Below are positions 1-15,583 of a stretch of DNA of 18,054 nucleotides, piece after piece. The notes below the pieces were generated by a model. It worked only from the letters and a program-made list of their open reading frames with translations. It had not been told where the DNA came from and searched no databases. Where the stretch lies: positions 1-18,054 of the forward strand of contig NZ_PVNL01000139.1 of the NCBI RefSeq assembly GCF_002994635.1. Reading direction: 5' to 3'. The translations under genes were made by a program, and so were the position numbers. The stretch's first letter is position 1. Each line of letters opens with the position of its first letter. The DNA is from Enhygromyxa salina (GTDB lineage: Bacteria; Myxococcota_A; Polyangia; Nannocystales; Nannocystaceae).

Positions 1-436
1 CCCCAGCATCCACCGCCCCCCGCCAAGGTTGTTCGAGCTGCCCGACCAACAAGATCAACCCAACGATCCCCACCAACAACACCCAAGACCCAATCAACCG
101 CCGCCGCGAAGCATGGATCAACCCCATCGCCATCACCGGCGCCACCACCACCATCCACCCTCCCCGCCGCGCCAACGCAAACGCCCGCACCACCACCCGC
201 GGCGAAAAGCTGCGCTGAAACCCCCGGTACCCCTCGCTGTACGCGAACAAGCCGATCAACCCAACGTAGGCAAGCGCCCCACCAAGCTCGAGCGACCCAT
301 CGAGCACCGGCTCGAGCGCCCGCGGCAGCAACCGCACGATCGCCTGCAGCAATAGCGCGACGATCCCCAGGACCGCCCACCACACGATCGCCAGGCCGCC
401 GCGCGTGGTCGGTGGGGAGCTCATGCGCCGGACCAT
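1..436 (-). CDS. Polytopic membrane protein of unknown function. Only the N-terminal ~145 aa are in the window; the 3' end runs off the window start.
   Basis: The reverse-strand frame is open from the ATG at complement 434-436 (with an in-frame stop just upstream at 443-445) to position 1. Its translation is MVRRMSSPPTTRGGLAIVWWAVLGIVALLLQAIVRLLPRALEPVLDGSLELGGALAYVGLIGLFAYSEG...GSWVLLVGIVGLILLVGQ. It shows at least three hydrophobic helix-length segments and strong GC3 codon bias. The six-frame track does not list it because the window contains no stop for it. The + strand ORF 29..355 on the same DNA is a His/Pro/Arg low-complexity artefact. Confidence 0.5.
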   Translation of the reverse strand, partial: MVRRMSSPPTTRGGLAIVWWAVLGIVALLLQAIVRLLPRALEPVLDGSLELGGALAYVGLIGLFAYSEGYRGFQRSFSPRVVVRAFALARRGGWMVVVAPVMAMGLIHASRRRLIGSWVLLVGIVGLILLVGQLEQPWRGAVDAG

Positions 437-548
437 ACGCGCTCACGCGGCAGGCGGGAATCGCTCGCGCGCAGCCTGGTCTGGGCCCCCCGGTTGGGTC
501 GGCGGAATCCTGTGCGAAACTCCGCAGGGACCGCACCCACGAGTCACC

Positions 549-2537
549 ATGCGCAAGTTCAGCCTCGCCCTCGCCGCCTCCTGTCTGCTCTGCCTGCCCG
601 CCTGTGACAGCTCGCCCAACGACAAGGACCGCGCGTCCAAGGACGACAAGGACGACAAGGACGACAAGGACCGCGCGTCCAAGGACGAGGACAGCGACAA
701 AGACGACGACAGCAACCCGCTCGCGGGCCTCGCCAACAACCCCTTGGCGGCGATGTTCACCAAGAAGCTCGACGAGCCGGGCCCCTACGATCCACCCAAG
801 CAGTCGCCCAACTACGCCGCCGATCAACCGCACCTGCGCGTGCTGAACCTGTCCGGCAGCGTCGGCGAGGTCGAGTCCTTCGATCCGCTGGCGTTCGCGG
901 GCGGCGGCGGCGGCAGCCTGCGGACCCGGGCGCTGCTCGACAAGCTCGGCGAGCTGGCCGCCGAGCCGCAGCTCGAGGGCCTGGTCTTGCGAGTGGGGGA
1001 TCTGAGCCTGGACATGGCCCGCGGCGTCGAGCTGCGCGCGGCGCTGACCGAGTTCAAGGCAGAGGGCGCCCGCAAGCTCCACTGTCACGCCGAGTCGCTG
1101 AACAACACCAGCTACTTCCTGCTCTCGGTCTGCGACGAGCTGGCCATGGTCCCCGTCGGCACGCTGATGCTGCCCGGACCCGCGGCCACGCCCATCCACC
1201 TCAAGGGCCTGCTCGACAAGCTCGAGGTCCAAGCCGACTTCCTGCACGTCGGCGCGTTCAAGGGCGCGGCCGAGCCCCTGACCCGCGACGCGCCCTCGCC
1301 CGAGATGCTCGAGACCCTCGGCGCGCTGGTGGATCAGGCCTACGCGACCATGGTCAGCGGCATCGCGCAGGGTCGGGGCAAGCCCGAAGCCGAGGTCACC
1401 GGGTGGATCGACCAGAGCTTGTTCACGTCCGAAGCCGCGGCCGAGCGGGGCCTGATCGACAGCGTCGAAGCGTGGGAGCCGTTCTTGACCCGGGTCACGG
1501 GCGAGCGCGGGTGGAAGAACGTCACGCTGACGGACAAGCCGTGGTCCGACCCCCTCGCGCTGCAGCGCTTCTTGGGCATGGCGGGGCCCAAGCGCCCGAG
1601 CGAGCCCCACGTCGCGCTGGTCTACGCGGTCGGCAACATCATCGACGGCAAGGGCGGCGGCGCGATCGGAGCCACGACCGAGATCGCCTCGGGTCAGCTG
1701 GTCCCCGTGCTCGACCGCCTCGCCGCCGACGACAAGGTCGCGGCCGTGGTCCTGCGCATCGACTCTGGCGGCGGGTCGGCCCAGGCCTCGGAGCAGATCT
1801 GGCACGCGGTCGAACGGCTCAAGGCCACCAAGCCCGTGGTCGTGTCGATGGCCGGGGTCGCGGCTTCGGGCGGCTACTACATCGCCGCGGGCGCCGACCA
1901 GATCTTCGCCGACACCGACACCGTGACCGGGTCGATCGGCGTCGTCGGCGGCAAGCTGGTGCTCGGCAAGGCGCTCGAGAGCTTCGGCATCAAGAGCTTC
2001 GCGGTGACCAAGGGCGAGCACGCGCTGCTGTGGTCGCCGATGCAGGCGTGGACCCCGGACGAGCGCGAGATCGTCTACGCCATGATGGAGCAGACCTACG
2101 AGGTGTTCGTCCAGCGCGTCGCCGCCGGTCGCAACATGGACCGCGACGCCGTCCACGAGATCGCCCAGGGTCGGGTCTGGACCGGCGTCGCCGCCAAAGA
2201 GCGCGGGCTCGTCGACGAGCTCGGCGGGCTCGAGCAGGCGCTGGCGGCCGCGGCCAAGCTCGGCAAGGTCGAGCCCGACGTCGGTCTCGAGGTCTACCCG
2301 GGCGAGCCCACGATCAAGGACATCCTCGGCAGCTTCGAGCAGCTCGTGGCCGTTCAAGCTGGGGCCCGCGCCGACTCGCTGCCGATCGGGATCGGGATGG
2401 TCATCGACGAGCTCGCGGCCAGCGTCGGGCCCGAGGGGCGACCGTGGATCGAGGCCGTCCGCGCGTCACTGCGGACCACCGTCGCGCTGCAAGGCAGCAC
2501 GGTGTGGGCGGTCGAGTGGACCCAGAGCGTTCGCTAG
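549..2537 (+). CDS. sppA: Signal peptide peptidase SppA (protease IV, peptidase S49), 67K type with two tandem S49 domains. The N-terminus has a lipoprotein-like signal.
   Basis: Lies within the tracked ORF 405..2537. The preferred start is the ATG at 549, giving MRKFSLALAASCLLCLPAC (signal peptide with Cys). Two S49/ClpP-like halves are present. The second half carries the typical active-site context VVVSMAGVAASGGYYIAAGADQIFADTDTVTGSIGVVGG and GGSAQASEQIWHAVERL. A low-complexity acidic linker DKDRASKDDKDDKDDKDRASKDEDSDKDDD follows the signal. Confidence 0.85.
   Translation: MRKFSLALAASCLLCLPACDSSPNDKDRASKDDKDDKDDKDRASKDEDSDKDDDSNPLAGLANNPLAAMFTKKLDEPGPYDPPKQSPNYAADQPHLRVLNLSGSVGEVESFDPLAFAGGGGGSLRTRALLDKLGELAAEPQLEGLVLRVGDLSLDMARGVELRAALTEFKAEGARKLHCHAESLNNTSYFLLSVCDELAMVPVGTLMLPGPAATPIHLKGLLDKLEVQADFLHVGAFKGAAEPLTRDAPSPEMLETLGALVDQAYATMVSGIAQGRGKPEAEVTGWIDQSLFTSEAAAERGLIDSVEAWEPFLTRVTGERGWKNVTLTDKPWSDPLALQRFLGMAGPKRPSEPHVALVYAVGNIIDGKGGGAIGATTEIASGQLVPVLDRLAADDKVAAVVLRIDSGGGSAQASEQIWHAVERLKATKPVVVSMAGVAASGGYYIAAGADQIFADTDTVTGSIGVVGGKLVLGKALESFGIKSFAVTKGEHALLWSPMQAWTPDEREIVYAMMEQTYEVFVQRVAAGRNMDRDAVHEIAQGRVWTGVAAKERGLVDELGGLEQALAAAAKLGKVEPDVGLEVYPGEPTIKDILGSFEQLVAVQAGARADSLPIGIGMVIDELAASVGPEGRPWIEAVRASLRTTVALQGSTVWAVEWTQSVR
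621..700 (+). repeat. Short coding direct repeats inside sppA. A 26-bp perfect direct repeat sits at 621-646 and 663-688, and a 9-bp GACGACAAG triplet lies between the copies. It encodes a (DKDRASKD/DDK)n acidic linker.
   Basis: Direct reading of the sequence: gacaaggaccgcgcgtccaaggacga occurs twice. Confidence 0.8.
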
Positions 2538-4249
2538 AGCACCGACTTGGGGCGGCGGTTGAACCACGCGATCCCGAAGATCCCCAGCAACCCAAACAGG
2601 CCCTGCAGACCCAGGCGCTCGATCGAGCAGCCTGGGCCAGGGCCGGTCAGCTGCGAGTCGTTCCAGGCGCTGAGCGTGGCGTCGATCGTCGCGGCGTTGT
2701 CGAGCTCGACCTGCGGCGGGCCCATCATCGGGACTCGCTCGATCCGCAGCGCGGCCGGGTTGTCGTCGAGCTCGGGCATCGTGCCTCCGTTGGTCAGCGC
2801 GACCGTGCGTCCGTCCGGCAGCTCGAAGTACGAGGGCCCGCCGTCGCAGTCGTTGACCCGCGTCGCGCTGATGTTGTTGTCGACGGTCGGCACCCCGCCA
2901 GCCGGGTGAAACAGCGGATCCTCGATCATCTCGTGAGGCGAGATCAGCGTGAACAGCCGGGTCAGCTGGGTCGCGTCGTCGAGCATGTCGAGGGCGTGCT
3001 GACCGGGGCCGACGATCCGGGTCTGAAAGTCCGCCGCGAAGCCCGGCTGCGCGTCCCAGGCGGTCAGGTCGATCTGGTCCTGGAAGCACTCGAGGCAGCT
3101 CCAGAACTCGTGGGCGTTCACGCCACTCGGGGCCGGCAGGTAGATGTTCAACAGCACCTCCAGCTGCGGGTGCGCGAACGTGCACTCGCCGTCCGTGCAG
3201 CTCATGAGGCCGCGAGACACGAGCAGATCGATGAAGGTCAGCAGCTCGGCGTTCTCGAACGCCGCCGGGTCCCACTGCGGATCGAACACCCCGGAGGTCG
3301 AGACAATCGCGTCGGTGCCCGCGTACTCGGTGATGAACGCACGACCGCCCGCCTCGTCGATCGCGAGGCTGACGACTTCGTTGTAGGTGGTGCTCGGCCC
3401 GTTGACCCAGTCGAAGCGCGAGTGGTTGATCTCCACGTGCGGCCAGTTCTGCGGGGCGGCCCGCTCGTTGCCCAGGAAGAACGCCCGGATCGCCATGTCG
3501 TCGACCGCCGCGATCCGGGTCAGCCGGATCGGAATGCAAGGCTCGACGCCCGGATAGCGGATCCCGAGCGGGTGGATCTCGTCGACCCCGGCCCCGCTGG
3601 CGAGCTTGACCGCCACGAACACGAAGCCCTCTTGCAGGTACTCCTCGAGGATCGGCGGCGCGTCGGGGTCTTGCGCGTAGCCGGCCTGATCGAGCCAGTC
3701 GGTGATCTCGGCGATGTTGTCGCCGGTCAGCACCACGTACTCGAACGCGCCCGCGAACCCGCGATCGAGGATCTCGGGCCCGTCGGTGTCCCCACCTGTG
3801 AGACCGGTCCCGCCACCGTCGTCGGCGAAGTCGATCTCGCTCGACTCGGCCGTGGCGCAGGCGAGCCCGGTCGACCCCCCACAGTCCCCGATCGACGTGG
3901 TGTTGATCGTGAAGGTCGGGACCGTCGCCTGCAGCACGTTGTCGAACAGCGCCTGCGAGCCGACCAACACCTCCGGGACCTCGAGCACCGGTATGATCCA
4001 CGCGAACCGCTCGGCGTCGCCCTCGTACTGAATCTGGATGTGCGCCTCCGTGTAGGGCTCGCTGCCGGTCTCGTCGATCCAAAAGATGATGCTCTCGCCG
4101 GTCTGGTCGACCGGCATCACCTGCGGACCCGCGTCGCAAAAGGTCCCGCCGCAGGCCTCGGCGGTGGTTGGCGCGGCGACCACCAAAGGAACGACCACAG
4201 CCGCCAACAGGGCGGGCGCGAGCAGCTTGATTGAGTTGCGAATCAGCAT
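2534..4249 (-). CDS. Secreted Cys-rich protein of unknown function (571 aa) with a MYXO-CTERM-like C-terminal sorting tail. Paralogue 1 of a tandem pair.
   Basis: Tracked ORF. The N-terminal signal peptide is MLIRNSIKLLAPALLAAVVVPLVVAAPTTAEA followed by CGGTFCDAGPQ. The protein has 18 Cys residues. The C-terminus GPGPGCSIERLGLQGLFGLLGIFGIAWFNRRPKSVL has a Gly/Cys motif, then a hydrophobic helix, then a basic cluster, which is the MYXO-CTERM pattern. It is about 75-80% identical to the downstream ORF 4289..6025. The antisense ORFs 1403..4234 and 2466..4139 are R/G/D-rich artefacts. Confidence 0.8.
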   Translation of the reverse strand: MLIRNSIKLLAPALLAAVVVPLVVAAPTTAEACGGTFCDAGPQVMPVDQTGESIIFWIDETGSEPYTEAHIQIQYEGDAERFAWIIPVLEVPEVLVGSQALFDNVLQATVPTFTINTTSIGDCGGSTGLACATAESSEIDFADDGGGTGLTGGDTDGPEILDRGFAGAFEYVVLTGDNIAEITDWLDQAGYAQDPDAPPILEEYLQEGFVFVAVKLASGAGVDEIHPLGIRYPGVEPCIPIRLTRIAAVDDMAIRAFFLGNERAAPQNWPHVEINHSRFDWVNGPSTTYNEVVSLAIDEAGGRAFITEYAGTDAIVSTSGVFDPQWDPAAFENAELLTFIDLLVSRGLMSCTDGECTFAHPQLEVLLNIYLPAPSGVNAHEFWSCLECFQDQIDLTAWDAQPGFAADFQTRIVGPGQHALDMLDDATQLTRLFTLISPHEMIEDPLFHPAGGVPTVDNNISATRVNDCDGGPSYFELPDGRTVALTNGGTMPELDDNPAALRIERVPMMGPPQVELDNAATIDATLSAWNDSQLTGPGPGCSIERLGLQGLFGLLGIFGIAWFNRRPKSVL

Positions 4250-4288
4250 GTCGGTGCTTCTTTCTGGTGACTATCTCTAACTCTAGCT

Positions 4289-6025
4289 CTAGCGCCTACG
4301 CCCGCGGCTGAACCAGGCGATCCCAAACATCCCGAACATGGCCAGCATCCCCTCGAGGCCGACGCGACCGATCGAGCAGCCCGGCTCGGGGCCCGAGAGC
4401 TGGTCGTCGTTCCAGGCCTTCAGCAGGCCGTCGATGTCGTCGCCGTTGTCGGTCTCGACCTGCGGCGGGCCCATCATCGGGACCTGCTCGATCCGCAGCG
4501 CGGCCGGGTTGCCGTCGAGCTCAGGCATCGACCCGCCACTGTCCAGCGCGATCGTGCGACCGTCCGGCAGCTCGATGTAGGACGGCCCGCCATCGCAGTC
4601 GTTGACCCGCGTCGCGCCGATGTTGTTGTCGACGGTCGGCAGCCCGCTGGTGGTGTGAAACAGCGGGTCTTCGATCATCTCGTGGGGCGACAGCAGCGTG
4701 AACAGCCGGGTCAGCTGGGTCGCGTTGTCGAGCATCTCGAGCGCGTGCTGGGCAGGCCCGTAGATCCGCGCCTCGAAGTCCGCGGCGAAGCCCGGCTGCG
4801 TGCCCCACGCGGTCTCATCGATCAGCCCCTCGTAGCAGGACACGCAGCTCCAATAGGTGTGGGCGGCGACGCCGTCGGGGGCCGGCAGGTAGATGTTCAG
4901 CAGCGCCTCGACCTGCGGGTGCCTGAAGATGCACTCGAGCCCGTCGCAGGTCATCAGGACCTGCGACGTGAGCTCGTCGACCACGTCGACCGCGGCGATC
5001 CCTTCGAGCGCCGACAGGCTCCAGCTCGACTCGAACACGCCGGAGGTCGAGATGATCGCGTCGGTGCCCGAGTACTCGGTGACAAACCCCCGACCACCCG
5101 CCTCGTCGATCGCGAGGCTGACGATCTCGTTGTAGTTGGTGCTCGGCCCGTTGACCCAGTCGTAGCGCGAGTGGTTGATCTCCACGTGCGGCCAGTTCTG
5201 CGGGGCGGCCCGCTCGTCGCCCAGGAAGAACGCCCGGATCGCCATGTCGTCGACCGCCGCGATCCGGGTCAGCCGGATCGGGATGCAGGGCTCGACGCCC
5301 GGATAGCGGACCGCGAGCGGATGGATCTCGTCGACCCCGGCCCCGCTGGCGAGCTTGACCGCCACGAACACGAAGCCCTCTTCGAGGTACTCCTCGAGGA
5401 TCGGCGGCGCGTCGGGGTCTTGCGCGTAGCCGGCCTGATCGAGCCAGTCGGTGATCTCGGCGATGTTGTCGCCGGTCAGCGTCACGTACTCGAACGCGCC
5501 CGCGAACCCACGATCGAGGATCTCGGGCCCGTCGGTGTCCCCGCCGTCGCCCCCGCTGCTGAAGGCCTCGTTGCGTCCATCACCACCAGCCGAGAAATCT
5601 GCGGCTGCGCAGCCGATCCCGAACGACCCGCCGCAATCCCCGATCGAGGTGCTGTTGATCGTGAAGGTCGGGACCGTGGCCTGCAGCATGTTGTTGAACA
5701 GCGCCTGCGAGCCGACCAACACCTCGGGGACCTCGAGCACCGGGATGATCCACGCGAACCGCTCGGCGTCGCCCTCGTATTGGATCTGGATGTGCGCCTC
5801 GGTGTGTGGTTGGCCGCCGCTCTCGTCGATCCAAAAGATGATGCTCTCGCCGGTCTGATCGACCGGCATGACCTGCGGGCCGGCGTCGCAGAAGGTCCCG
5901 CCGCAGGCGTCGGCGACCTGCGGAGACCAGGCCGCGAGCGCGAGCATGCCCGGCAGCGCCAAGGTGAACAGACGAGAGATCAAGGTCGAAGGTGCGTAGG
6001 TCATGACAGCTTTGGTAGCTTGCAT
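4289..6025 (-). CDS. Secreted Cys-rich protein of unknown function with a MYXO-CTERM-like tail. Paralogue 2 of the tandem pair. The start is placed at the ATG at complement 6023-6025; the ATG at 6002-6004 is also plausible.
   Basis: The tracked ORF 4289..6295 starts upstream with a non-protein-like stretch (MATTSISTVG...). A signal peptide appears only from MQATKAVMTYAPSTLISRLFTLALPGMLALAAWSPQVADA followed by CGGTFCDAGPQ. The C-terminus is GCSIGRVGLEGMLAMFGMFGIAWFSRGRRR (MYXO-CTERM-like). There is long collinear identity with paralogue 1. Confidence 0.75.
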   Translation of the reverse strand: MQATKAVMTYAPSTLISRLFTLALPGMLALAAWSPQVADACGGTFCDAGPQVMPVDQTGESIIFWIDESGGQPHTEAHIQIQYEGDAERFAWIIPVLEVPEVLVGSQALFNNMLQATVPTFTINSTSIGDCGGSFGIGCAAADFSAGGDGRNEAFSSGGDGGDTDGPEILDRGFAGAFEYVTLTGDNIAEITDWLDQAGYAQDPDAPPILEEYLEEGFVFVAVKLASGAGVDEIHPLAVRYPGVEPCIPIRLTRIAAVDDMAIRAFFLGDERAAPQNWPHVEINHSRYDWVNGPSTNYNEIVSLAIDEAGGRGFVTEYSGTDAIISTSGVFESSWSLSALEGIAAVDVVDELTSQVLMTCDGLECIFRHPQVEALLNIYLPAPDGVAAHTYWSCVSCYEGLIDETAWGTQPGFAADFEARIYGPAQHALEMLDNATQLTRLFTLLSPHEMIEDPLFHTTSGLPTVDNNIGATRVNDCDGGPSYIELPDGRTIALDSGGSMPELDGNPAALRIEQVPMMGPPQVETDNGDDIDGLLKAWNDDQLSGPEPGCSIGRVGLEGMLAMFGMFGIAWFSRGRRR

Positions 6026-6110
6026 GCCACCGGCGCTCGCGCCAACGATCTTCAGCTGGAGCCGGATTCTTCGCAGTTTTCCGCAGCGCACCGCCACCAA
6101 GACGCGGGTG

Positions 6111-6950
6111 TCACACCAATTCGGGATACAGGTGGCGAGCCTCGAAGCCCTCCCGCAGGTCCTCGGCCCGCTCGTAGCGGGCGCCCAGGTCCACCACCAG
6201 GTAGCGCCGCTTGGACGGCGGCGCACCAAACAAGACGGGGCAGGCCTGGTTGCCGTGCTCGGTGTACCAACCGTCGAGATCGACGTCGTGGCCATGCACG
6301 ACCACGCGCAGGTCCAGCCCTGGCTGCGACAGCTGGCGCAGCAGCTTGTTGGTGGTCTCGCCGGCCTGACCGTAGCTGGTCAGCAAGGTCCGCAGCATCG
6401 ATCGCTGAGCCAGCTCGGCTTCGCCCGATGGCTCGAGCGCGCCGAGCTGATCGAGCGAAGGGATCTGCTCGTCGGGCGAGCCGTGGCACAGCAGCAGTCC
6501 GCACGGCGCCGCCACGGCCAGCAGCGCGCCACGAAACAGCGCGTGCATCCGGGCGATCGCGTCGGCCGACATCCGTCGCTCGAGCATCTCGACCTCATCA
6601 CGATAGAACTTGCTGGTGTGCGGTCCGCCGATGTGCCCGTGGTCATGATTGCCGAGCAGCAAGTGGAAGTTGGCGGGAAATCGCGCGCGCAGCTCGATCA
6701 TCGCCTCGACCAGCGCGGCGCTCTCGTCGGGGTAGCCAAACCGCAGCGCGTCACGCTGGCGGGCGACCGGGCTGGGCCCATGAACCAGGTCACCCAGCGA
6801 CGCCCAGTGAACCAGATCCGGGTGCTCGGCGGCCTCGCACAGCCTATCGAACACCGCGCGGAGCCGCCGAAAGTCCTCGTGGTTGCCGTGCAGATCCGTG
6901 GAGATCAGCAGCTGCCCACGCGCGGGCAAGATCCGAACACGGCCCGCCAT
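6111..6950 (-). CDS. Calcineurin-like metallophosphoesterase (PPP/ApaH-like phosphatase fold).
   Basis: The metallophosphatase motifs appear in order: D-x-H in STDLHGN, GD-x-x-D/H in LGDLVHGP, and GNH[DE] in LLGNHDHGH, with a later VVHGHD. The Shine-Dalgarno sequence GAGGGG lies 6 nt upstream of the ATG at complement 6948-6950. Confidence 0.75.
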   Translation of the reverse strand: MAGRVRILPARGQLLISTDLHGNHEDFRRLRAVFDRLCEAAEHPDLVHWASLGDLVHGPSPVARQRDALRFGYPDESAALVEAMIELRARFPANFHLLLGNHDHGHIGGPHTSKFYRDEVEMLERRMSADAIARMHALFRGALLAVAAPCGLLLCHGSPDEQIPSLDQLGALEPSGEAELAQRSMLRTLLTSYGQAGETTNKLLRQLSQPGLDLRVVVHGHDVDLDGWYTEHGNQACPVLFGAPPSKRRYLVVDLGARYERAEDLREGFEARHLYPELV

Positions 6951-6965
6951 GCAAACCCCTCGCGT

Positions 6966-8150
6966 TCAGGAGAACGCGCTCAGGCCCGTGAGCGCGCGGC
7001 CAATCGCGAGGGTGTGGATCTCGTGGGTGCCCTCGTAGGTGAACACCGTCTCGAGGTTGCACAGGTGCCGCATGATGTGGAACTCGCCCATGATCCCGTT
7101 GCCGCCGAGCATGGTCCGCGCGGTCTGGGCGGCCTCACGAGCCATGCGCACGTTGTCGCGCTTGAGGTAGCTGACCTGCGAGGGATCGAGCTGGCCCGCC
7201 TGCTTGAGCCGGCCAAAGTGATAGGCGAGCAGCAGCCCCTTGCCGATCTCGTTGTGCAGCTCGACGAGCTTTTGCTGGGTCAGCTGAAAGCCCGCGATCG
7301 GGCGCCCGAACTGGACGCGATCCAGGGTGTACTGGCGGGCCCGCTCGTACACGTCCATGGCCGCGCCCACGGCCCCCCAGCCGATCCCGTAGCGCGCCTG
7401 GGTCAGACAGCTCAGCGGCCCCTTGAGCCCGCGCACGCCCGGCAACATGTTGTCCTTGGGCACGCGGACCTCGTCGAGCACGATCTCGCCCGTGATCGAC
7501 GCCCGCAAGCTCAGCTTTCCGTGGGTCTCGGGCGTGCTCAGCCCAGCCATGCCGCGCTCGACCACGAACCCGCGGATCACCGGCGTGTCCGAGCCGTGAT
7601 CCAAGGTCTGGGCCCAGACCACGCACAGGTCCGCGATCGGGCTGTTGGTGATCCACATCTTTTGCCCGCTCAAGATGTAGTCGCCGCCCTCGCCGTCTTG
7701 CTTGGCGTGGGTGCGCATCGAGCCGGGGTCCGAGCCAGAGTTGGGCTCGGTCAGGCCGAAGCAGCCGATCAGCTCGCCAGCGGCCATGCGCGGCAACCAC
7801 CGCTGCTTTTGTTCCTCGGTGCCGTAGGCCGAGATCGGATACATCGCCAGCGCGGTCTGGACCGAGCAAAACGAGCGGATGCCCGAGTCCACGCGCTCGA
7901 GCTCGATCATGATCGTGCCGTACGCGACCGGGTTGAGGCCGGCGCAGCCGTAGCCCTCGATCGAGCAGCCCAGGAAGCCCATCTCGGCGAACTCGGGGAT
8001 CAGCTCCTTGGGGAAGGTGCCGGCCTCGTAGTGCTGCTCGATCACGGGCATCACCCGGGTCTGACAAAAGTCGCGGGCGGCCTTCCAGGTCAGCCGCTCG
8101 TCATCGTCGAGCAGGTGGTCGATGCTCAGCAAATAGGTGCGCGGGTCCAT
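6966..8150 (-). CDS. gcdH: Glutaryl-CoA dehydrogenase-like acyl-CoA dehydrogenase (394 aa).
   Basis: Full-length ACAD fold. The C-terminal motif TVFTYEGTHEIHTLAIGRALTG matches the glutaryl-CoA dehydrogenase catalytic-Glu region (TYEGTHDIHALILGRAITG in human GCDH). The length and the FAD/substrate-binding regions (GxTEPxxGSD, WITN) are also consistent. Confidence 0.8.
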   Translation of the reverse strand: MDPRTYLLSIDHLLDDDERLTWKAARDFCQTRVMPVIEQHYEAGTFPKELIPEFAEMGFLGCSIEGYGCAGLNPVAYGTIMIELERVDSGIRSFCSVQTALAMYPISAYGTEEQKQRWLPRMAAGELIGCFGLTEPNSGSDPGSMRTHAKQDGEGGDYILSGQKMWITNSPIADLCVVWAQTLDHGSDTPVIRGFVVERGMAGLSTPETHGKLSLRASITGEIVLDEVRVPKDNMLPGVRGLKGPLSCLTQARYGIGWGAVGAAMDVYERARQYTLDRVQFGRPIAGFQLTQQKLVELHNEIGKGLLLAYHFGRLKQAGQLDPSQVSYLKRDNVRMAREAAQTARTMLGGNGIMGEFHIMRHLCNLETVFTYEGTHEIHTLAIGRALTGLSAFS

Positions 8151-8216
8151 GCGGGCGATGAAATACCACGGCCCGGCCCGCGAGTTGCGACCCGCCGAAA
8201 TTCGGCTGCGGGCGAG

Positions 8217-9713
8217 TCAGTAGCTCTCGCAGCGAGTCTCGTTGGCGGCGCAGCTGAAGCGGACGTGGAAGTGCGCCGTGTGGCCGCTCGCGTTGCGCAC
8301 GATCCCGTTGTTGGTGCCCGAGCTGCTGGGGTACTGGATCGTGCGCTCGAGCATGTCCTTGCTCGCCCCGGCCTTCTTGGCGGCCTTGTAGAGCCGCTTT
8401 TGCCGACTCGTGCTCAAGAAAATGTACTGGACCTCGCCGGTCGAGATTAGCGCCTGGATCAGCGCCCAGGTCGCGTCCCAGTCGACGTCGTCGATGTTGT
8501 CCGACGAGCCGCTCGCCGACTTGACCGGCAGCCGGACGTCGACGTCGCGGCCGCTCTGGTGCGACGAGTGCGGCTTGAGCCGGCCGCCACCTCGCTTGCT
8601 GATCGCGCCGATCACCAACTCACCGCTGAACCCCGTCGCGCGGCGAAAATTGGCGATCGCCAGCTGCAGATTGTGCAGGGTGTGGCTGCTGCCAAAGCAC
8701 TCGTCTGGCTTGCGAATCGTGTACAGGACCTTGTTCTCGGGCAGCGCGAGCGCGTTGACGAGCTTGCCGCGATTGGGCTTGCCGACCGAGACCGAGCCGG
8801 TCTTGATCTTGACCAGCGGCAGCCTGGCAGCAGACACGGAGGCCGCGCTCGCGGTGCTCGACGAGCTCACGCTGGCAGACTTGGCGCTGGTCCCCGCGCT
8901 CGCCTTGGTCCGGGTCTCGTCGGCGTCGCGCAGAAGATCTGGGTTGTTCAGCGGGTCGACCCAGATCACCAGCTCTTGCCCGGCCTTGAACTTGCGCGGG
9001 ACCTTGGAGTTCCAGCGCAAGCGCAGCAGATCCACGTCGACGTGGTGCGCGCTGGCGATCTTGTTCCACGTGTCGCCCGACTTGACCGTGTAGATCAGCT
9101 TTTGCTGGGGCGGCGGGATGTGCTTGGTGTAGACCGCGAGATCGCGGCCCGCGAACAGCTGCGGCCGCCTCTCGTCGAGCTTGTTCCAGCGGATCAGCGA
9201 GCCCGTGCGGACGTCGTAGCGGGTGGCGATGTCATCGAGCCGCTCGCCCGGGAGGATCGTGTGCTTGATCCACTTGGGCTTCTTGAGCTTCTTGATCTTG
9301 GGGGCCGCGACCTTGGGCTCGGGCGGCGGAGGCTCGGCCGCGCTCGGGCTGTCGTCGGGCTCGTCTTCGTCGGGCTCGTCTTCGTCAGGCTCGTCTTCGT
9401 CGGGCTCGTGCTTGTCCGACTTCGACTTGGCCTGCGGGGGCGGGCTCGACTCGGCCGTGACCTCCGGCAGGATGTCGGGGAGATCTTCGGGTGAGGGCAG
9501 ATCGCCCAACTCGACCTCGGCCTCGGCATTGACCTCGGCATTGACCCTGCCGCGATCACTCGGCGGCGAGGCTGTCGCGACCGCAGGCGAGCCGATGCCC
9601 AACCCGAAGGTCAGCGTGAGCGGCAGAGCGAGCCACAACGAGCGAGGGCGACCATGAGCGACCGACGGGGGCGGCTCGGCTTGTGATGACTCTCGCTCGG
9701 GCTCACTCGGCAT
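8217..9713 (-). CDS. mepA: LysM-LysM-MepA fusion: a secreted penicillin-insensitive murein endopeptidase (peptidase M74, LAS metallopeptidase family). It has two N-terminal LysM domains and an acidic low-complexity region.
   Basis: There is a signal-peptide-like N-terminus. The two LysM repeats are HTILPGERLDDIATRYDVRTGSLIRWNKL and YTVKSGDTWNKIASAHHVDVDLLRLRWN. The MepA zinc-ligand motifs are KPHSSHQSGRDVDV (HASHQTGLDVDI in E. coli MepA) and HTAHFHVRFSC (DHFHVRLSC in E. coli MepA). Confidence 0.85.
   Translation of the reverse strand: MPSEPERESSQAEPPPSVAHGRPRSLWLALPLTLTFGLGIGSPAVATASPPSDRGRVNAEVNAEAEVELGDLPSPEDLPDILPEVTAESSPPPQAKSKSDKHEPDEDEPDEDEPDEDEPDDSPSAAEPPPPEPKVAAPKIKKLKKPKWIKHTILPGERLDDIATRYDVRTGSLIRWNKLDERRPQLFAGRDLAVYTKHIPPPQQKLIYTVKSGDTWNKIASAHHVDVDLLRLRWNSKVPRKFKAGQELVIWVDPLNNPDLLRDADETRTKASAGTSAKSASVSSSSTASAASVSAARLPLVKIKTGSVSVGKPNRGKLVNALALPENKVLYTIRKPDECFGSSHTLHNLQLAIANFRRATGFSGELVIGAISKRGGGRLKPHSSHQSGRDVDVRLPVKSASGSSDNIDDVDWDATWALIQALISTGEVQYIFLSTSRQKRLYKAAKKAGASKDMLERTIQYPSSSGTNNGIVRNASGHTAHFHVRFSCAANETRCESY
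9361..9405 (-). repeat. 15-bp tandem repeat (tcgtcttcgtcgggc/tcgtcttcgtcaggc), three full units plus flanking partial units, inside the LysM-MepA gene.
   Basis: Direct reading of the sequence. Confidence 0.8.
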
Positions 9714-9716
9714 TGA

Positions 9717-10691
9717 TCATTCGCTTGTTTCGGCTGATGGCTCGGCCGGCAACCCAAGCGCGACGAGCACATCTGGGTAGATCTTCGCGGCCAGATACTC
9801 GCAGCCTGGCATGGTGAAGTGCACACCATCCTCGCTGCGCAGCTCGTGTTGCTTGCCTTTGACCTTGATGGTCTTCAGCAACGCACCCTGTTCATCGACC
9901 AGATATTGGTTGGTGTCCAAGTATAGACCGGCGTCACCGAGCGCGCCGACGCCCTGTTCGTGGATCTCGCGGATCACCTTCAGCTTGCGCTCCAGGCTGG
10001 GACTGGTGACCTGTGGCAGGCTGAGCCACAGCACCTCTGCGCCATCTTCGCCGTCCACGGGGGTGGTGACGCTGGCCAGGAAGTCGTCGACCCGACCGCG
10101 ATAGGCGGCAGGCCAGCCGTCGGTGTCCCACACCACGCGGCTCTCGCTCTTCCACGGCGCGATGTCCTGACCATCGTTGGCGCCCATGAACACGATCACG
10201 AGATCGGGCTTGCGGAACTCGACCTGGCGCTTGCCCTGATCATCCCAGTCAAAGAAGTCTGGACGCGACAACCCCGAGGCGCTCTTGGCCTTGCGATACG
10301 CGACGATGTCCGGGTTGGCGTCGAGCATGTCCTCGAGCACGGCCCCGAACCCGGTCGCCGCCAACGACGAGCCGACGATCAACACGCGACGGGGCTCGAG
10401 CAGCGCGACCGGCTCGGGTGCGTCTGCTGCGGCTTCGGCCTCGTCGCCAACCGCGACGGCGTCGGCCGCTGCATCTTCTTCACCGACGGCCGCGGGATCG
10501 CCCGTCGCCAGCACGGTTGGATCCTCTGAAGGGGCTGCGTCGGTGGCCGGGGGCGTGGGCGCCTGAGGCTCGACCGCGGGCGACGGTGCGTCGACTGTTC
10601 CACCCGTGCCAGACGGCTCGGTGCAGCCCAACAGCGCTGTAGCGCCAAGCGTGAACAGCGCCAATGCGCGGACGGTCGAAGGTCGGATCAT
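9717..10691 (-). CDS. SGNH/GDSL-type hydrolase family lipoprotein (324 aa). The start is taken at the internal ATG that gives a lipoprotein signal.
   Basis: The tracked ORF 9717..11063 begins with an Arg/Cys-rich non-protein-like stretch. From the ATG at complement 10689-10691 the product is MIRPSTVRALALFTLGATALLGC (lipobox LLGC), then an Ala/Pro/Glu-rich linker, then the SGNH blocks VLIVGSSLA, FMGANDGQD and DGVHFT. The stop lies 3 bp before the mepA start, so the two are probably co-transcribed. Confidence 0.7.
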   Translation of the reverse strand: MIRPSTVRALALFTLGATALLGCTEPSGTGGTVDAPSPAVEPQAPTPPATDAAPSEDPTVLATGDPAAVGEEDAAADAVAVGDEAEAAADAPEPVALLEPRRVLIVGSSLAATGFGAVLEDMLDANPDIVAYRKAKSASGLSRPDFFDWDDQGKRQVEFRKPDLVIVFMGANDGQDIAPWKSESRVVWDTDGWPAAYRGRVDDFLASVTTPVDGEDGAEVLWLSLPQVTSPSLERKLKVIREIHEQGVGALGDAGLYLDTNQYLVDEQGALLKTIKVKGKQHELRSEDGVHFTMPGCEYLAAKIYPDVLVALGLPAEPSAETSE

Positions 10692-10942
10692 GGCGGCGAA
10701 GCTAACTGAGTTCGATCTGGCAAGGAAATAAGTGGAGCGCGGTGACGGGCGAGATCGACGCTCAGCCGGCGAGACCGACGCTCGGCGCTGAAGCTCGATT
10801 CCAACCGGTGTCAGTTTCCCGCCAATGACCCAGTTTGCGAACGCTGCCCGCAGGCGCGCCAGAAACCTGGCCCGAGCTGATAACCCACACTGGCAACGCG
10901 TCGGGGTCTGTGAAACACTGGGGCCTGGTACGGAGGACCCCC

Positions 10943-11374
10943 ATGAAGACTGACTCGTCTGCCCTCGCCCGTTGGCGCCTCGCTCGTCGCATCTCACTTG
11001 GTGCGATCGTCGTCGCCGGCACCATGACCACCGCCGCCGCGGTCGCCCAGCGCATCGCCGCACATCCGTGCAGCATGTCGCAGCGCGCCAACGTCCAGAG
11101 CTACTACAGCTACTCGGGCATCGGTGTGGAGCTGACCCAAGATGGCAGTGATTTCGTCGTCGCTCGCGTGTTCGCGGGCAGCCCCGCCGACGGCAAGCTG
11201 TTCCCCGGCGCCGTGCTGCTCAGCGTCGACGGAGAGAGCCCCAAGCACATGCAGCAGTGGACCAACATGATCCGCGGCGAGCAGGGCACCCCCGTCGAGC
11301 TCGAGGTCGTCTACCCCTGCTCCGGCCACGACACCGTCGTGCTCGAGCGAGACGTCGTCCGCCTCCGCTACTAA
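10943..11374 (+). CDS. Small PDZ-domain protein (143 aa) with an N-terminal signal/anchor.
   Basis: A strong RBS (GGAGGA, 5-7 nt before the ATG at 10943) lies inside the tracked ORF 10835..11374. The signal or anchor sequence is MKTDSSALARWRLARRISLGAIVVAGTMTTAAAVAQ. The PDZ-like core is GIGVELTQDGSDFVVARVFAGSPADGKLFPGAVLLSVDGES...GTPVELEV. Confidence 0.7.
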   Translation: MKTDSSALARWRLARRISLGAIVVAGTMTTAAAVAQRIAAHPCSMSQRANVQSYYSYSGIGVELTQDGSDFVVARVFAGSPADGKLFPGAVLLSVDGESPKHMQQWTNMIRGEQGTPVELEVVYPCSGHDTVVLERDVVRLRY

Positions 11375-11400
11375 AGCGTCGGACCTCTGCCAGTAAAAGA

Positions 11401-11438
11401 GCACCGAGCTGGCATCGCCAGTTGGGTGCTTTTTTATT
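11401..11438 (+). terminator. Rho-independent terminator after the PDZ gene.
   Basis: GCACCgagCTGGCatcGCCAGttgGGTGC forms a nested GC-rich hairpin. It is followed by the run TTTTTTATT, 27 nt after the TAA stop. Confidence 0.8.
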
Positions 11439-11465
11439 GGTTCGAGATCGTCGTAGAGTTGGTTC

Positions 11466-11843
11466 ATGACTGGCTACGGACGAATGGCACCGCGAGCCGT
11501 CGCGCTGTTCATCGATCTCGTGTTGATCGGGTTTGTGACCTCGATCATCAGCGGCCTGCTCGGCACCGACAGCCACGGCGTGGTCGCCTCGGTGATCAGC
11601 TGGCTGTACTTCGCCGTCCAGGAGTCGAGCGGGTGGATGGCCACGCTCGGCAAGCGCGCGATGGGGCTCGCGGTCCAGGGTGTCGACGGCCGGCAGCTGA
11701 GCTTCACCCAGGCCAGCATCCGCTGGGTCGGGCGCTGGGTCTCGGGACTGGCCCTGGGGTGTGGGTATCTGCTGGCGCTGTTCACCGACAAGCGGCAGAC
11801 CCTGCACGACTTAATCGCCGGCACTGTCGTGGTTCAGCGCTGA
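11466..11843 (+). CDS. RDD-family membrane protein.
   Basis: The N-terminus is RAVALFIDLVLIGFV, followed by two TM segments. The loop WMATLGKRAMGL...DGRQLSFTQASIRW and the ending HDLIAGTVVV are characteristic of the RDD domain. The start could instead be the ATG at 11484. Confidence 0.7.
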   Translation: MTGYGRMAPRAVALFIDLVLIGFVTSIISGLLGTDSHGVVASVISWLYFAVQESSGWMATLGKRAMGLAVQGVDGRQLSFTQASIRWVGRWVSGLALGCGYLLALFTDKRQTLHDLIAGTVVVQR

Positions 11844-11867
11844 CGTCGCGCTAAGGTGACTGAAGCC

Positions 11868-12323
11868 ATGACCCTCGATGAACTCGCCGCCCTGCTCGCG
11901 CGCACCACCGAAGACTTTCGGCGTACCGAAACGCACTGGCAGTTCGCGCATCAAGGCGTCCCGATGGCGTGCCTGACGGACCCCAGCTTCGATCGCATGC
12001 GCTTCATCGCGCCGGTCACCGAGCTGAGCAAGATGGACGAGGAGACCAAAAATGCGGTCCTCGAAGCCAACTTTCACACAGCGCTCGACGCTCGCTATGG
12101 CAGCTCCAACGGCTTGCTGTTCGCGGCGTTCATCCATCCGCTGAGCTCGCTGGAGCTCACGCTGGCCGTCTCGGCGCTAGATCAGGTCGCCTCGCTGGTC
12201 CAGACCTTTGGCTCGCACTACAGCGGCGGAACCCTCGAGCTCATTGGCGGCCGCGAGCCAGGCCTGCACGATCTAGAGGACGATGACGACGATGATGACG
12301 ACAGCGGCCCGCTGCTGAACTAA
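11868..12323 (+). CDS. YbjN/CesT-fold protein (type III secretion chaperone-like or putative sensory transduction regulator family). It has a poly-Asp C-terminal tail.
   Basis: A Shine-Dalgarno sequence AAGGTG lies 8 nt before the ATG at 11868; the tracked ORF starts at GTG 11856. The protein is about 150 aa and acidic, with a W-x-F...G-x-x-M-A-C...DRMRFIAP...NGLLFAAF pattern typical of YbjN-like proteins. The tail is DLEDDDDDDDDSGPLLN. The gene is 12 nt downstream of the RDD gene. Confidence 0.5.
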   Translation: MTLDELAALLARTTEDFRRTETHWQFAHQGVPMACLTDPSFDRMRFIAPVTELSKMDEETKNAVLEANFHTALDARYGSSNGLLFAAFIHPLSSLELTLAVSALDQVASLVQTFGSHYSGGTLELIGGREPGLHDLEDDDDDDDDSGPLLN

Positions 12324-12334
12324 GCTGCGCGCCC

Positions 12335-13351
12335 ATGAGGCAGATCTGGATCAGTCGCGCCGGCAAGCCCGAGGTGCTCGAGCTACGCGAGGCGCCGGAC
12401 CCCGAGCCTGGACCCGGCGAGATCCGGATCCGCGTCGCCGCCAGCGGCCTCAACTTCGCGGACATCAGCGCGCGCATGGGCCTATACCCCGACATGCCGC
12501 CGATCCCCTGCGTCGTGGGCTACGAGGTCTCGGGTGTCGTGGACGCGGTCGGCGAGGGCGCCAGCGACATCGAGCTCGGGGCCAAGGTCGTCGCGCTGAC
12601 TCGGTTCGGCGGGCACTCGGACGTCGTCTGCATTCCTCGCGCCCAGGCCGTGCGGATCCCCGAAGGGATCTCCATGACCGCCGCCGCCGCGGTGCCGGTC
12701 AACTACCTCACCGCGTGGCTGATGCTCGTCGAGCTGGGCAACGTCCACGCGGACCACACCGTGCTGGTCCACGCGGCGGCTGGTGGTGTCGGCCAGGCCG
12801 CGCTTCAGATCTGCAAGCATCGCGGGGCCTCGGTGATCGGCACCGCGAGCGCGGGCAAGCACGAGCGCCTGCGCGAGGTCGGGGTAGATCACTGCATCGA
12901 CTACCGCAACCTGGACTTCGAGGCCGAGGTCATGCGGATCACCGAGGGTCGCGGGGTCGACATCGCGCTCGACGCCGTCGGCGGTGAGTCGTTCTCCAAA
13001 AGCTACCGATGCCTGCGCCACTGCGGGCGCCTGTTCATGTTCGGGGCCTCGAGCTTCGCGCCCTCGGACAAGCGCCGGCTGATGCCGATCCTCAAGGGTC
13101 TCGTCAAGACCCCGAAGTTCAAGCCCTTCGACCTGCTCGACAACAACCGCGGCGTGTTTGGCATCAACCTCGGGCACCTGTGGCACGAGATCGATCGGCT
13201 CGGCACGCTGTTCGAGCAGGTCATGGACAAGGTCGGCGACGGCACGCTCACGCCCGTGATCGATCGTGAGTTCAGCTTTGATCAGGCCGCCGAGGCCCAC
13301 GCCTATATTCAGGGCCGAAACAACTTCGGCAAGGTGCTGCTGGTCCCGTGA
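12335..13351 (+). CDS. qor: NADPH:quinone oxidoreductase (VAT-1-like), a zinc-independent medium-chain dehydrogenase/reductase.
   Basis: Canonical MDR N-terminus G.PEVLELREAPDPEPGPGEIRIRV. The nucleotide-binding loop is HAAAGGVGQAALQ. There are no structural-zinc Cys ligands. The C-terminus is NFGKVLLVP. Confidence 0.8.
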   Translation: MRQIWISRAGKPEVLELREAPDPEPGPGEIRIRVAASGLNFADISARMGLYPDMPPIPCVVGYEVSGVVDAVGEGASDIELGAKVVALTRFGGHSDVVCIPRAQAVRIPEGISMTAAAAVPVNYLTAWLMLVELGNVHADHTVLVHAAAGGVGQAALQICKHRGASVIGTASAGKHERLREVGVDHCIDYRNLDFEAEVMRITEGRGVDIALDAVGGESFSKSYRCLRHCGRLFMFGASSFAPSDKRRLMPILKGLVKTPKFKPFDLLDNNRGVFGINLGHLWHEIDRLGTLFEQVMDKVGDGTLTPVIDREFSFDQAAEAHAYIQGRNNFGKVLLVP

Positions 13352-13359
13352 AACGAGGA

Positions 13360-13390
13360 CGCCGCCCGTGCGCGCGAGCGCAGGGCGGCG
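13360..13390 (+). terminator. GC-rich hairpin in the convergent intergenic gap after qor (8-bp perfect stem CGCCGCCC/GGGCGGCG with a 15-nt loop). Putative factor-dependent terminator.
   Basis: The inverted repeat is read directly from the sequence and starts 9 nt after the qor TGA. There is no T-tract, so intrinsic termination is uncertain. Confidence 0.35.
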
Positions 13391-13431
13391 GGAGTGAGAC
13401 CTCGGTCGACTGGTCGGCTAGCTGGCAGACG

Positions 13432-13479
13432 ACTTGGCGAGCCACTTGGCGAGCTACTTGGCGAGCTACTTGGCGAGCT
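13432..13479. repeat. 12-bp tandem repeat (acttggcgagcy x4) spanning the stop codon of the - strand VWA lipoprotein gene.
   Basis: Direct reading of the sequence. On the - strand each unit reads CTC GCC AAG TAG (L-A-K-stop). Consecutive in-frame TAG stops occur at 13466-13468, which is the stop in use, and at 13454-13456. Confidence 0.85.
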
Positions 13480-15255: not shown

Positions 15256-15328
15256 TCCGGCATAGCTCAGTTGGTAGAGCAGTCGGCTGTTAACCGACTT
15301 GTCGCAGGTTCGAGTCCTGCTGCCGGAG
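15256..15328 (+). tRNA. tRNA-Asn (anticodon GUU), 73 nt, with no encoded CCA.
   Basis: Manual cloverleaf: acceptor TCCGGCA/TGCCGGA; D arm GCTC-AGTTGGTA-GAGC; anticodon stem GTCGG/CCGAC with loop CTGTTAA (anticodon GTT); variable loop TTGTC; T arm GCAGG-TTCGAGT-CCTGC; discriminator G. Confidence 0.9.
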
Positions 15329-15339
15329 CTACCTGAGAC

Positions 15340-15388
15340 AAACCCCGCATCGGACCGCTTGGCACGGTCCCCGCGGGGTTTGCTTTTG
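15340..15388 (+). terminator. Intrinsic terminator after tRNA-Asn.
   Basis: AAACCCCGC...GCGGGGTTT is a 9-bp stem that encloses an inner GGACCG/CGGTCC hairpin. It is followed by TTTGCTTTTGGGG. Confidence 0.7.
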
Positions 15389-15583
15389 GGGCATGGTGGC
15401 GCGGCGGGTCCGGGCCTCGTAGAGGTCCGCGTGCATCGTGCGGTCGGCGTGAACTCGGACCTCGCGGACGGTCGAGCCGACGAGTTCCTTGGCCTCCGGT
15501 CCGGCGAGGCTGAGGATCTCGCTGCCGGCTTCCGAGCTACACTCCCTGCTGTGCCGCCCAAGGCCAGGACGAAGGAGGCGACG

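Follow-up and report, generated by a model that had tools for sequence, protein, structure and literature searches.

Tandem DUF2330 proteins of Enhygromyxa salina and their predicted structural similarity to the viral caspase inhibitor P35

The DNA analyzed here is an 18,054-nt stretch of the genome of the marine myxobacterium Enhygromyxa salina (the window; all positions of genes and open reading frames [ORFs] given below are those of this whole stretch). It contains two adjacent genes, designated A and B, which are tandem paralogs of the DUF2330 family (Pfam ID PF10092), a family that had been catalogued before. Both proteins are predicted to be exported, to start in their mature form with a Cys residue, and to be held at the cell envelope by a C-terminal tail of a divergent MYXO-CTERM type. 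In the structural model of protein A, the only significant match to the core of the ectodomain is the P35/P49 family of caspase inhibitors from insect viruses. We put the probability that this identity, sorting, and P35-like fold are all correct at slightly better than even (about 0.55). As annotated DUF2330 proteins with a divergent MYXO-CTERM-type anchor, A and B are ordinary for a myxobacterium; the modeled P35-like fold is the feature of most interest, and it was invisible to an earlier note on the same DNA.

DUF2330 identity of the gene pair

Genes A and B (Table 1) are separated by 39 bp, a spacing compatible with co-transcription of B and A, and their products share 76% identity across 565 residues (BLASTP). 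These data bear out the earlier note, which had presented the two as adjacent minus-strand paralogs. The same note had seen no recognizable domain in either protein, which is half true: PF10092 matches residues 29 to 308 of A and residues 38 to 289 of B, in both cases above the gathering cutoff of 24.7 bits, and the public records title both proteins “DUF2330 domain-containing protein [Enhygromyxa salina].” Pfam lists the family as “Uncharacterized protein conserved in bacteria,” neither A nor B is covered by an NCBIfam model, and searches of the PDB sequences with protein A and with the actinobacterial DUF2330 profile returned nothing related or useful. Within the library that was covered, a literature search found no paper mentioning DUF2330. 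Protein A is 100% identical to the public E. salina protein P0001 and is encoded on the same 200-kb contig as P0004, the public version of B. In the public annotation, gene B starts at the ATG at position 6004, which yields a protein of 571 aa (P0004) that equals B from M8 onward; in its longest form, the ORF of gene B extends to position 6295. Both genes have a coding-type third-position GC content (GC3) of 0.89 to 0.92, in a window with a G+C content of 65 to 71%, and no promoter or terminator signals above chance were found around them.

The family is large. An exhaustive phmmer search recovered 4654 clusters at 50% identity with E ≤ 1e-3 (927 with E ≤ 1e-30), mostly of the same length, ∼570 aa. 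A scan of species-representative genomes yielded 474 stretches encoding such proteins, 80 of which were retained for the locus analyses; all 80 are titled Myxococcota or unclassified metagenome-assembled genomes (MAGs), with the names Nannocystaceae, Polyangia, and “Myxococcales.” More than one head-to-tail DUF2330 copy is present in 23 of these 80 loci, so that the A/B pair is one case of a common tandem expansion. A Nannocystaceae MAG carries 7 or 8 head-to-tail DUF2330 genes within 13.5 kb (locus L031, positions 284 to 13524), and other MAGs have 4 copies each (see, alongside L031, loci L034 and L039). There are also fused multicopy forms, namely, P0121 (1833 aa), P0124 (1470 aa), and P0238 (1489 aa), each with 3 to 4 separate matches to the query. 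The suggestion in the earlier note that the pair could represent an undescribed cell-surface system was overstated, given a catalogued family of this size that comes without conserved partner genes. DUF2330 was not found in phage records, and in plasmid records it was found only in a 2.66-Mb Nocardia replicon.

In Mycobacteriales, a shorter DUF2330 form of ∼345 aa is widespread (P0282 to P0401; the genera include Nocardia, Mycobacterium, and Mycolicibacterium), and it is this form that the Pfam model fits best. A Nocardia member spans the whole PF10092 profile with a score of 425 bits, and an hhalign comparison of the myxobacterial and Mycobacteriales alignments gives a probability of 99.8% (E = 1.1e-28) with the ACGG motifs of the two aligned, so that at the level of sequence profiles the short form is clearly homologous to the myxobacterial one. 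Both forms have the A-x-A↓C-G-G start (the arrow marks the predicted cleavage site), the core, and a C-terminal membrane anchor. The myxobacterial proteins are ∼225 residues longer, with a helical insert, a β-rich extension, and extra cysteines, and end in a Cys-containing sorting tail, whereas the Mycobacteriales proteins have at their C-termini a plain transmembrane helix followed by an Arg anchor.

Predicted structural similarity to P35

A model of protein A built with AlphaFold2 from an alignment of 70 sequences has a mean predicted local distance difference test (pLDDT) score of 87.5 and a predicted template modeling (pTM) score of 0.81, with 426 residues at a pLDDT of ≥90; its low-confidence parts are the N-terminal peptide and the loop at residues 126 to 154, both with a pLDDT of <50, and the tail. 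In a Foldseek search of the PDB with this model, the top three matches were P35 chains, with probabilities of 0.98, 0.91, and 0.75. In the BFVD library of predicted viral structures, the first match was P49 of the Leucania separata nucleopolyhedrovirus (E = 2.3e-4; probability, 1.00), followed by an entomopoxvirus “P35 apoptosis inhibitor” (E = 8e-4; probability, 0.99) and a second protein of the same virus (probability, 0.96); below these three, E values were ∼1 or worse and the next probability was 0.15. P35-family proteins alone head the lists from three libraries and two algorithms, and this agreement singles out the P35 superfamily (AcP35, SpliP49, and AMVP33; Pfam ID PF02331, MEROPS I50). 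By the model, the core of A falls within the P35 fold (SCOP b.28). SCOP-based censuses of 2015 and 2017 give P35 a fold superfamily of its own (b.28.1) that is confined to viruses, according to a 2011 paper on P35 no cellular homolog had been described by then, and our literature searches found no report of a bacterial or other cellular relative. Judging from the predicted structure, DUF2330 is the only cellular family with a P35-like fold found in this analysis.

Several observations weigh against a relationship with P35. The Pfam model Baculo_p35 (PF02331) has no match in A or B at E ≤ 1, and hhalign comparisons of the myxobacterial and actinobacterial DUF2330 profiles with P35, taken either as a single sequence or as a 7-sequence alignment, give probabilities of 0.09 to 0.14, the P35 profile being a shallow one of 7 close P35s without P49 or entomopoxvirus P33. 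In view of this absence of a sequence relationship, the link to P35 lies at the level of the fold and rests on a predicted structure. The Foldseek template modeling (TM) scores against the P35 family are low, 0.26 to 0.39; in the PDB search, they were 0.36 to 0.39, with a best E value of only 5e-3 and a large global root mean square deviation. The P35 similarity could then be a false lead, in which case the core would be a generic multisheet β-sandwich of the kind seen in the N-terminal domain of M1 aminopeptidases, in ribophorin, and in VIT domains, and P35 would owe its first place to chance or to a bias of the model. Besides the missing sequence signal and the poor scores, the use of a predicted rather than an experimental structure as the query favors this explanation. 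We nevertheless regard it as doubtful, as it has to account for the consistent first place of the P35 family alone across libraries and methods, for the drop in BFVD probabilities from 0.96 to 1.00 for the P35 and P49 proteins to 0.15, and for the separate standing of the P35 superfamily in the fold censuses.

P35 acts as a suicide substrate. Its exposed reactive-site loop (approximately residues 60 to 98) is cleaved by a caspase at DQMD87↓G, and the acyl-enzyme thioester is then shielded by the repositioned N-terminus; the thiol of Cys2 is essential, and a cyclized N-terminal fragment is known from P35. The initiator Met of P35 is removed, making Cys2 the first residue, and the M1-C2 pair is invariant in 7 of 7 P35 sequences. 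Besides caspases, P35 inhibits gingipain K, a protease of bacterial origin. DUF2330 proteins have in common with P35 a Cys as the first mature residue (at a predicted cleavage site in the case of DUF2330), a long loop that is exposed and follows the initial strand block, and a similar order of elements, with four strands, a helix, the loop, one or more strands, two helices, and more strands. In addition, the short actinobacterial form has an ectodomain (∼285 aa) that comes close to P35 (299 aa) in size. In A, the loop at residues 121 to 158 is preceded by four strands and a helix and followed by a strand and two helices, and in terms of this order its modeled position would match that of the P35 reactive-site loop. 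The top residue pairing in hhalign, which is not significant, aligns “WLxxNGY” of DUF2330 with “ILKSHDY” of P35, on a helix that is paired by element order anyway. A further point on the negative side is that the equivalences of the two loops and of Cys33 with Cys2 rest on element order, which for P35 was taken from an AlphaFold model with a pLDDT of 40, so that the P35 secondary structure is indicative only. The two families also differ in several respects. P35 is cytosolic and viral, whereas the DUF2330 proteins are bacterial and predicted to be secreted and anchored to the membrane or the surface; the P35 loop has a defined site for caspase cleavage (DQMD↓G) and also a helix, whereas the DUF2330 loop is a low-complexity stretch of Gly, Asp, and Ser without a conserved site.

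Signal peptide and the predicted mature N-terminal cysteine

A and B share the same predicted mature N-terminus, CGGTFCDAGPQVMPVDQTGESIIFWIDE, which directly follows the Ala-Glu-Ala and Ala-Asp-Ala ends of their signal peptides, the first mature residues being CGGTFCD. The −3/−1 rule at the A-x-A↓CGG site holds for 314 of 321 DUF2330 members, the PROSITE lipobox pattern fits 37 of the 321, and position −2 is occupied by Glu, Asp, Arg, His, or Lys in 200, with Pro as the most common residue at −4. This combination makes cleavage by signal peptidase I likely, which would leave Cys-Gly-Gly (Cys33 in A) at the mature N-terminus; the Sec signal peptide that the earlier note had placed just before this Cys is thus a likely one. 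Among 343 relatives, the most conserved positions of the peptide are C33 (in 321), G34 (324), G35 (320), F37 (319), and C38 (312), and the peptide as a whole, CGGxFCD..P.MPVDQTGE, is almost invariant; it is the same in A and B despite a number of synonymous substitutions per site (dS) of 0.52 in this region. The aligned motif in Mycobacteriales is an invariant A-C-A-C-G-G after the signal peptide, which can alternatively be read as A-x-A↓C-G-G.

A Cys directly after a signal peptide also brings to mind a lipoprotein, with Cys33 acylated after cleavage by signal peptidase II, so that the protein would be lipid anchored at both ends. The 37 members with a PROSITE lipobox would fit such an arrangement. 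The lipobox, [LIVMFWSTAG](2)-[LIVMFYSTAGCQ]-[AGS]-C, does not fit either protein of the window, where the corresponding residues are T-A-E-A-C in A and V-A-D-A-C in B, with an acidic residue at −2, and the charged residues at −2 and the Pro at −4 that prevail in the family are signal peptidase I-like and incompatible with a lipobox. We therefore rejected the lipoprotein reading of A and B, given the acidic −2 residue and the few lipobox matches among the relatives, and a doubly anchored lipoprotein appears very improbable. For contrast, the von Willebrand factor A (VWA)-domain protein encoded elsewhere in the window (positions 13466 to 15010, minus strand) has at its N-terminus a textbook lipobox, LGLGC.

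C-terminal tail and the MYXO-CTERM signal

Both proteins end in a tripartite layout at the extreme C-terminus, GC-SIER-LGLQGLFGLLGIFGIAWF-NRRPK in A and GC-SIGR-VGLEGMLAMFGMFGIAWF-SRGRRR in B, that is, a Gly-Cys pair, a short charged spacer, ∼18 hydrophobic residues, and a cluster of Arg residues; the tail sequences quoted in the earlier note read as given there. That note had assigned the tails to the MYXO-CTERM sorting signal, and this assignment has to be qualified. The 34-residue model TIGR03901.2 (curated cutoff, 20 bits) does not match A or B, as full-length proteins or as isolated tails, even at E ≤ 10, which is the outcome that the note itself had named as refuting its proposal and which counts against a MYXO-CTERM tail, as does the Glu residue in the hydrophobic stretch of B (VGLEGML), which is atypical for MYXO-CTERM. 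According to Haft, the transmembrane region of MYXO-CTERM has no charged or Pro residues; the stretch in A has only a Gln, and the Glu of B may belong to the spacer rather than to the helix.

What stands of the assignment is the tripartite tail, its invariant Cys, and the matches among relatives. All 70 aligned relatives have the tail Cys (C541 in A), and TIGR03901.2 matches 36 of them at E ≤ 0.1, with a best E value of 8e-7; P0116, P0118, and P0119 score 16 to 19 bits. The tails of some relatives also match models of other myxosortase-dependent families, and more distant relatives have textbook ends of GCGC, a hydrophobic stretch, and RRRR. The single-Cys form is found on other proteins of the lineage as well. 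In ∼970 kb of the Myxococcota loci that were fetched, a small sample, 10 non-DUF2330 ORFs have tails with a Cys, a transmembrane stretch, and basic residues. Those from the Nannocystaceae/Enhygromyxa loci have the single-Cys form and comprise an unrelated α/β hydrolase (“KGCSIGQ...”; locus L014), with the same “GCSIG” signature as in B, and two ORFs of an Enhygromyxa MAG (locus L055) with “SCSV.EPK...” tails. Haft has described the short MYXO-CTERM model as lineage sensitive and in need of rebuilding for each lineage, and counted Plesiocystis (Plesiocystis pacifica, of the Nannocystaceae like E. salina) as MYXO-CTERM positive. Because of the invariant Cys, the matching half of the relatives, the lineage proteins with the same single-Cys variant, and this lineage sensitivity, we read the A and B tails, which are homologs of the MYXO-CTERM tails on other family members, as a probable MYXO-CTERM-type sorting signal with a single Cys, specific to the lineage.

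The two L055 ORFs (7780 to 8991 and 9453 to 10766, both on the minus strand) are adjacent paralogs of 403 and 437 aa that adjoin DUF2330 genes, have no Pfam match, and end in “SCSV.EPK.LRFAG...RRRRS”; by the look of their tails, they may represent a second uncharacterized cargo family.

Lipidation of the Cys, cleavage by myxosortase, and surface display dependent on the type II secretion system have been defined experimentally in Myxococcus xanthus, only for TraA and MXAN_4924. With these cargo proteins of the MYXO-CTERM/myxosortase (MrtX/MrtC) system, A and B have in common the tripartite tail at the extreme C-terminus, the invariant Cys, and a host from the Myxococcota. They differ from the usual MYXO-CTERM proteins in having one Cys (G-C-S-I) where GCGC is frequent and a charged spacer, ER or GR, after it. 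By analogy with the M. xanthus pathway, C541 in A and C550 in B, the Cys residues of the tails, would be lipidated, a myxosortase would remove the tail helix, and the proteins would be displayed on the cell surface via the type II secretion route. The transmembrane and Arg anchor found at the same place in the Mycobacteriales proteins suggests that an ectodomain anchored to the envelope is common to the whole family.

Ectodomain architecture and sequence divergence

The DUF2330 core is followed in A by an elaboration that consists of a helical insert (residues ∼313 to 427) carrying CxxxxC and CxxC pairs, two core strands (∼428 to 450, with the motif YLT...DP.F) that are common to actinobacterial DUF2330, and a β-rich extension with an invariant Cys468. 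Each precursor contains 11 cysteines, not the ∼18 counted in the earlier note; these are residues 33, 38, 123, 131, 238, 351, 356, 385, 388, 468, and 541 in A and the equivalent positions in B. The motifs listed in that note are all present (CTDGEC/CDGLEC, WSCLEC/WSCVSC, and NDCDGG). Among the 70 relatives, C351 and C356 co-occur with a phi coefficient of 1.0 and C385 and C388 with one of 0.96, and C123 and C468 are invariant. This pattern suggests disulfides C351-C356 in a β-hairpin and C385-C388 (the CxxC pair) at the start of a helix, and a C123-C468 disulfide probably ties the extension to the core. In the Mycobacteriales form, C123 falls in an alignment gap and the C-terminal extension that holds C468 is missing.

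The only polar residues conserved across both phyla are C33, E52, R263, T430, and D444, a handful that suggests a scaffolding or binding role rather than catalysis. An extracytoplasmic enzyme or a redox or metal protein, with the N-terminal Cys as a nucleophile or ligand (as in an N-terminal nucleophile [Ntn]-type or thiol enzyme), possibly assisted by the CxxC pair and the conserved Glu, Asp, and Arg, would accord with a mature N-terminus of an invariant Cys followed by Gly-Gly, with the placement of C385/C388 at a helix start, and with the cross-phylum conservation of E52, R263, and D444. We consider this quite unlikely. No enzyme family was matched in Pfam, NCBIfam, or the PDB sequences, very few polar residues are universally conserved, and the CxxC and CxxxxC pairs, which 14 to 19 of the 70 myxobacterial members and all Mycobacteriales members lack, cannot provide the core function. 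An Ntn-hydrolase in particular was rejected, as no Ntn fold was among the fold-search matches.

The loop at residues 121 to 158 is 22 to 49 aa long across the family and rich in Gly (26%), Asp (13%), and Ser (11%). Between A and B, it is 50% identical, with a number of nonsynonymous substitutions per site (dN) of 0.46 and a dS of 0.76. In codons 159 to 312, dS is 0.086, as opposed to 0.46 to 0.76 in the loop and in codons 313 to 400, which suggests recent gene conversion confined to the core, with the exposed parts staying divergent. The ratio dN/dS is 0.6 to 0.9 in the variable regions, and no region exceeds 1 at this resolution; positive selection between A and B was accordingly not detected. 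The description of the pair in the earlier note as diversifying is thus justified regionally, for the loop and residues 313 to 400, with dN/dS nowhere above 1.

Possible functions of A and B

The function that we favor, as a tentative proposal by analogy with P35 in which our confidence is low, is that of a surface-tethered protease trap. A and B would act as pseudosubstrates with a bait loop, in the manner of P35: once a protease had cut the exposed loop, the acyl-enzyme would be blocked or captured by the conserved Cys peptide at the N-terminus. Such a trap would protect the envelope of a predatory, protease-secreting cell, and tandem copies with differing loops would widen the range of trapped proteases. 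The concept resembles that of the bait-region traps, bacterial α2-macroglobulins and serpins, in the idea of an exposed, variable bait or reactive loop that is carried by a protein associated with the envelope and is diversified within the family. There is no relation to them in fold or sequence: neither was among the fold-search matches of the DUF2330 model, and DUF2330 lacks the CxEQ thioester motif.

Several findings speak against a trap. The loop has no conserved P1-type residue, as the position before its conserved Gly-Pro is Gly in 144 members and Asp in 67, and it could be a mere low-complexity linker. C33 and C38 co-occur in 60 of 70 relatives, and outside the cell they may form a Cys33-Cys38 disulfide, which would block a P35-type thiol mechanism. 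Finally, no protease gene was found as a conserved neighbor in the 80 loci or in the Mycobacteriales neighborhoods.

About equally likely is a noninhibitory, variable surface protein, such as an adhesin, a structural protein of the matrix or envelope, or a recognition molecule, in which the P35-like core would serve as a stable scaffold and the acidic loop and helical insert would be exposed surfaces diversifying under pressure from phages, predators, or kin recognition. This reading, possible but short of probable, is in line with the surface anchoring indicated by the tail, the frequent tandem multigene arrays, the variability of the loop and of residues 313 to 400 next to a homogenized core (dS, 0.086), and the lack of conserved partner genes, of a protease linkage, and of a conserved cleavage motif in the loop. 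The MYXO-CTERM cargo, moreover, is known to include polymorphic receptors such as TraA. It leaves unexplained, however, why the flexible A-x-A↓CGG peptide should be nearly invariant in two phyla; also, no adhesin-type domain or repeat was detected with Pfam, and dN/dS is under 1 throughout, the variable regions included.

The protease trap reading can be extended to the origin of P35. In this more speculative scenario, which we consider rather unlikely as it stands, the cellular kin that viral P35 and P49 have been missing would be the DUF2330 proteins, as an ancient bacterial family of envelope-tethered, mechanism-based bait-loop traps; P35 would derive from such a gene taken up by insect viruses, and in myxobacteria the family would have grown into tandem arrays whose bait loops differ and whose products are displayed by way of MYXO-CTERM.

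Feature map and genomic neighborhood

The features of the gene pair are listed in Table 1.

Table 1. Features of genes A and B in the E. salina window
Feature	Position(s)	Strand	Description or basis
Gene A, DUF2330-family precursor	2534..4249	−	571 aa; ORF and translation, PF10092 (85.3 bits)
Signal peptide of A	4154..4249	−	Residues 1-32, ends A-E-A; n, h, and c regions in sequence
Mature N-terminal peptide of A, near-invariant	4109..4153	−	CGGTFCDAGPQVMPV, residues 33-47; family conservation
Core of A, predicted β-rich, baculovirus P35-like fold	3314..4108	−	DUF2330 core, residues 48-312
Loop of A, disordered, hypervariable, Gly/Asp/Ser	3776..3889	−	Residues 121-158, starting at invariant Cys123; pLDDT, variability
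C-terminal elaboration of A, Myxococcota-specific	2645..3313	−	Residues 313-535; secondary structure, Cys co-occurrence, cross-phylum alignment
Tail of A	2534..2644	−	Residues 536-571 and stop; GPGPG-C541-SIER, hydrophobic stretch, NRRPK; sequence
Gene B, tandem paralog of A	4289..6025	−	578 aa; translation, PF10092 (84.4 bits)
Signal peptide of B	5906..6025	−	Residues 1-40, ends A-D-A; sequence
Mature N-terminal peptide of B	5861-5905	−	Equivalent to A 33-47
Variable loop of B	5525..5641	−	Residues 129-167; alignment with A
Tail of B	4289..4393	−	Residues 545-578 and stop; GPEPG-C550-SIGR, hydrophobic stretch, SRGRRR; sequence
Low-dS core segment, codons 159-312 of A vs counterpart in B	3314-3775 vs 5063-5524		dS 0.086

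No neighboring gene family is present in more than 15 of the 80 loci. Genes for an acyl-CoA dehydrogenase and a metallophosphoesterase lie upstream, and SspB lies downstream in relatives; these genes merely mark the orthologous site in the Enhygromyxa/Plesiocystis clade. The neighborhoods of DUF2330 genes in Mycobacteriales differ from one another. In Nocardia (locus L080; DUF2330 gene at 4815 to 5861, plus strand), an S9 oligopeptidase gene is nearby and an esterase gene adjoins.

Within the window, the stop of gene A overlaps by 4 bp (2534 to 2537) that of a convergent gene for an S49 (SppA-type) peptidase (405 to 2537, plus strand; 710 aa; S49 domain, 219 bits). An M74-type murein endopeptidase with two LysM domains (8217 to 9713, minus strand) is encoded directly downstream of a DUF459/GDSL-type protein (9717 to 11063, minus strand), and the two genes are a cell wall-related pair. 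A PIN-domain ORF (16504 to 16950, plus strand; Pfam PIN, 44.8 bits) is preceded, with an overlap of 11 bp, by a 102-aa ORF without a Pfam match (16206 to 16514, plus strand), and together they are probably a VapBC-like toxin-antitoxin module. This module is adjoined by an ORF for a Uma2-family putative restriction endonuclease (17030 to 17701, minus strand; 60.8 bits). Lastly, a 402-aa ORF (15299 to 16507, plus strand) has no Pfam match and a third-position GC content below the coding filter, and it may not be a gene.

Implications for the DUF2330 family

P35 is among the best-known inhibitors of apoptosis and a standard tool of cell death research, and to our knowledge its origin is not known. 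Should the P35 link fail, an ordinary pair of already annotated surface proteins would remain. Should it hold, P35 would gain a candidate ancestor in a large bacterial family with the same fold and the same unusual N-terminal Cys, one with thousands of clusters in Myxococcota and in Mycobacteriales (Mycobacterium and Nocardia among them), and DUF2330 would receive its first functional hypothesis. For the study of MYXO-CTERM, the family adds a widespread, multicopy group of likely cargo proteins and, in the Nannocystaceae, an apparent single-Cys variant of the tail that is missed by the current hidden Markov model.

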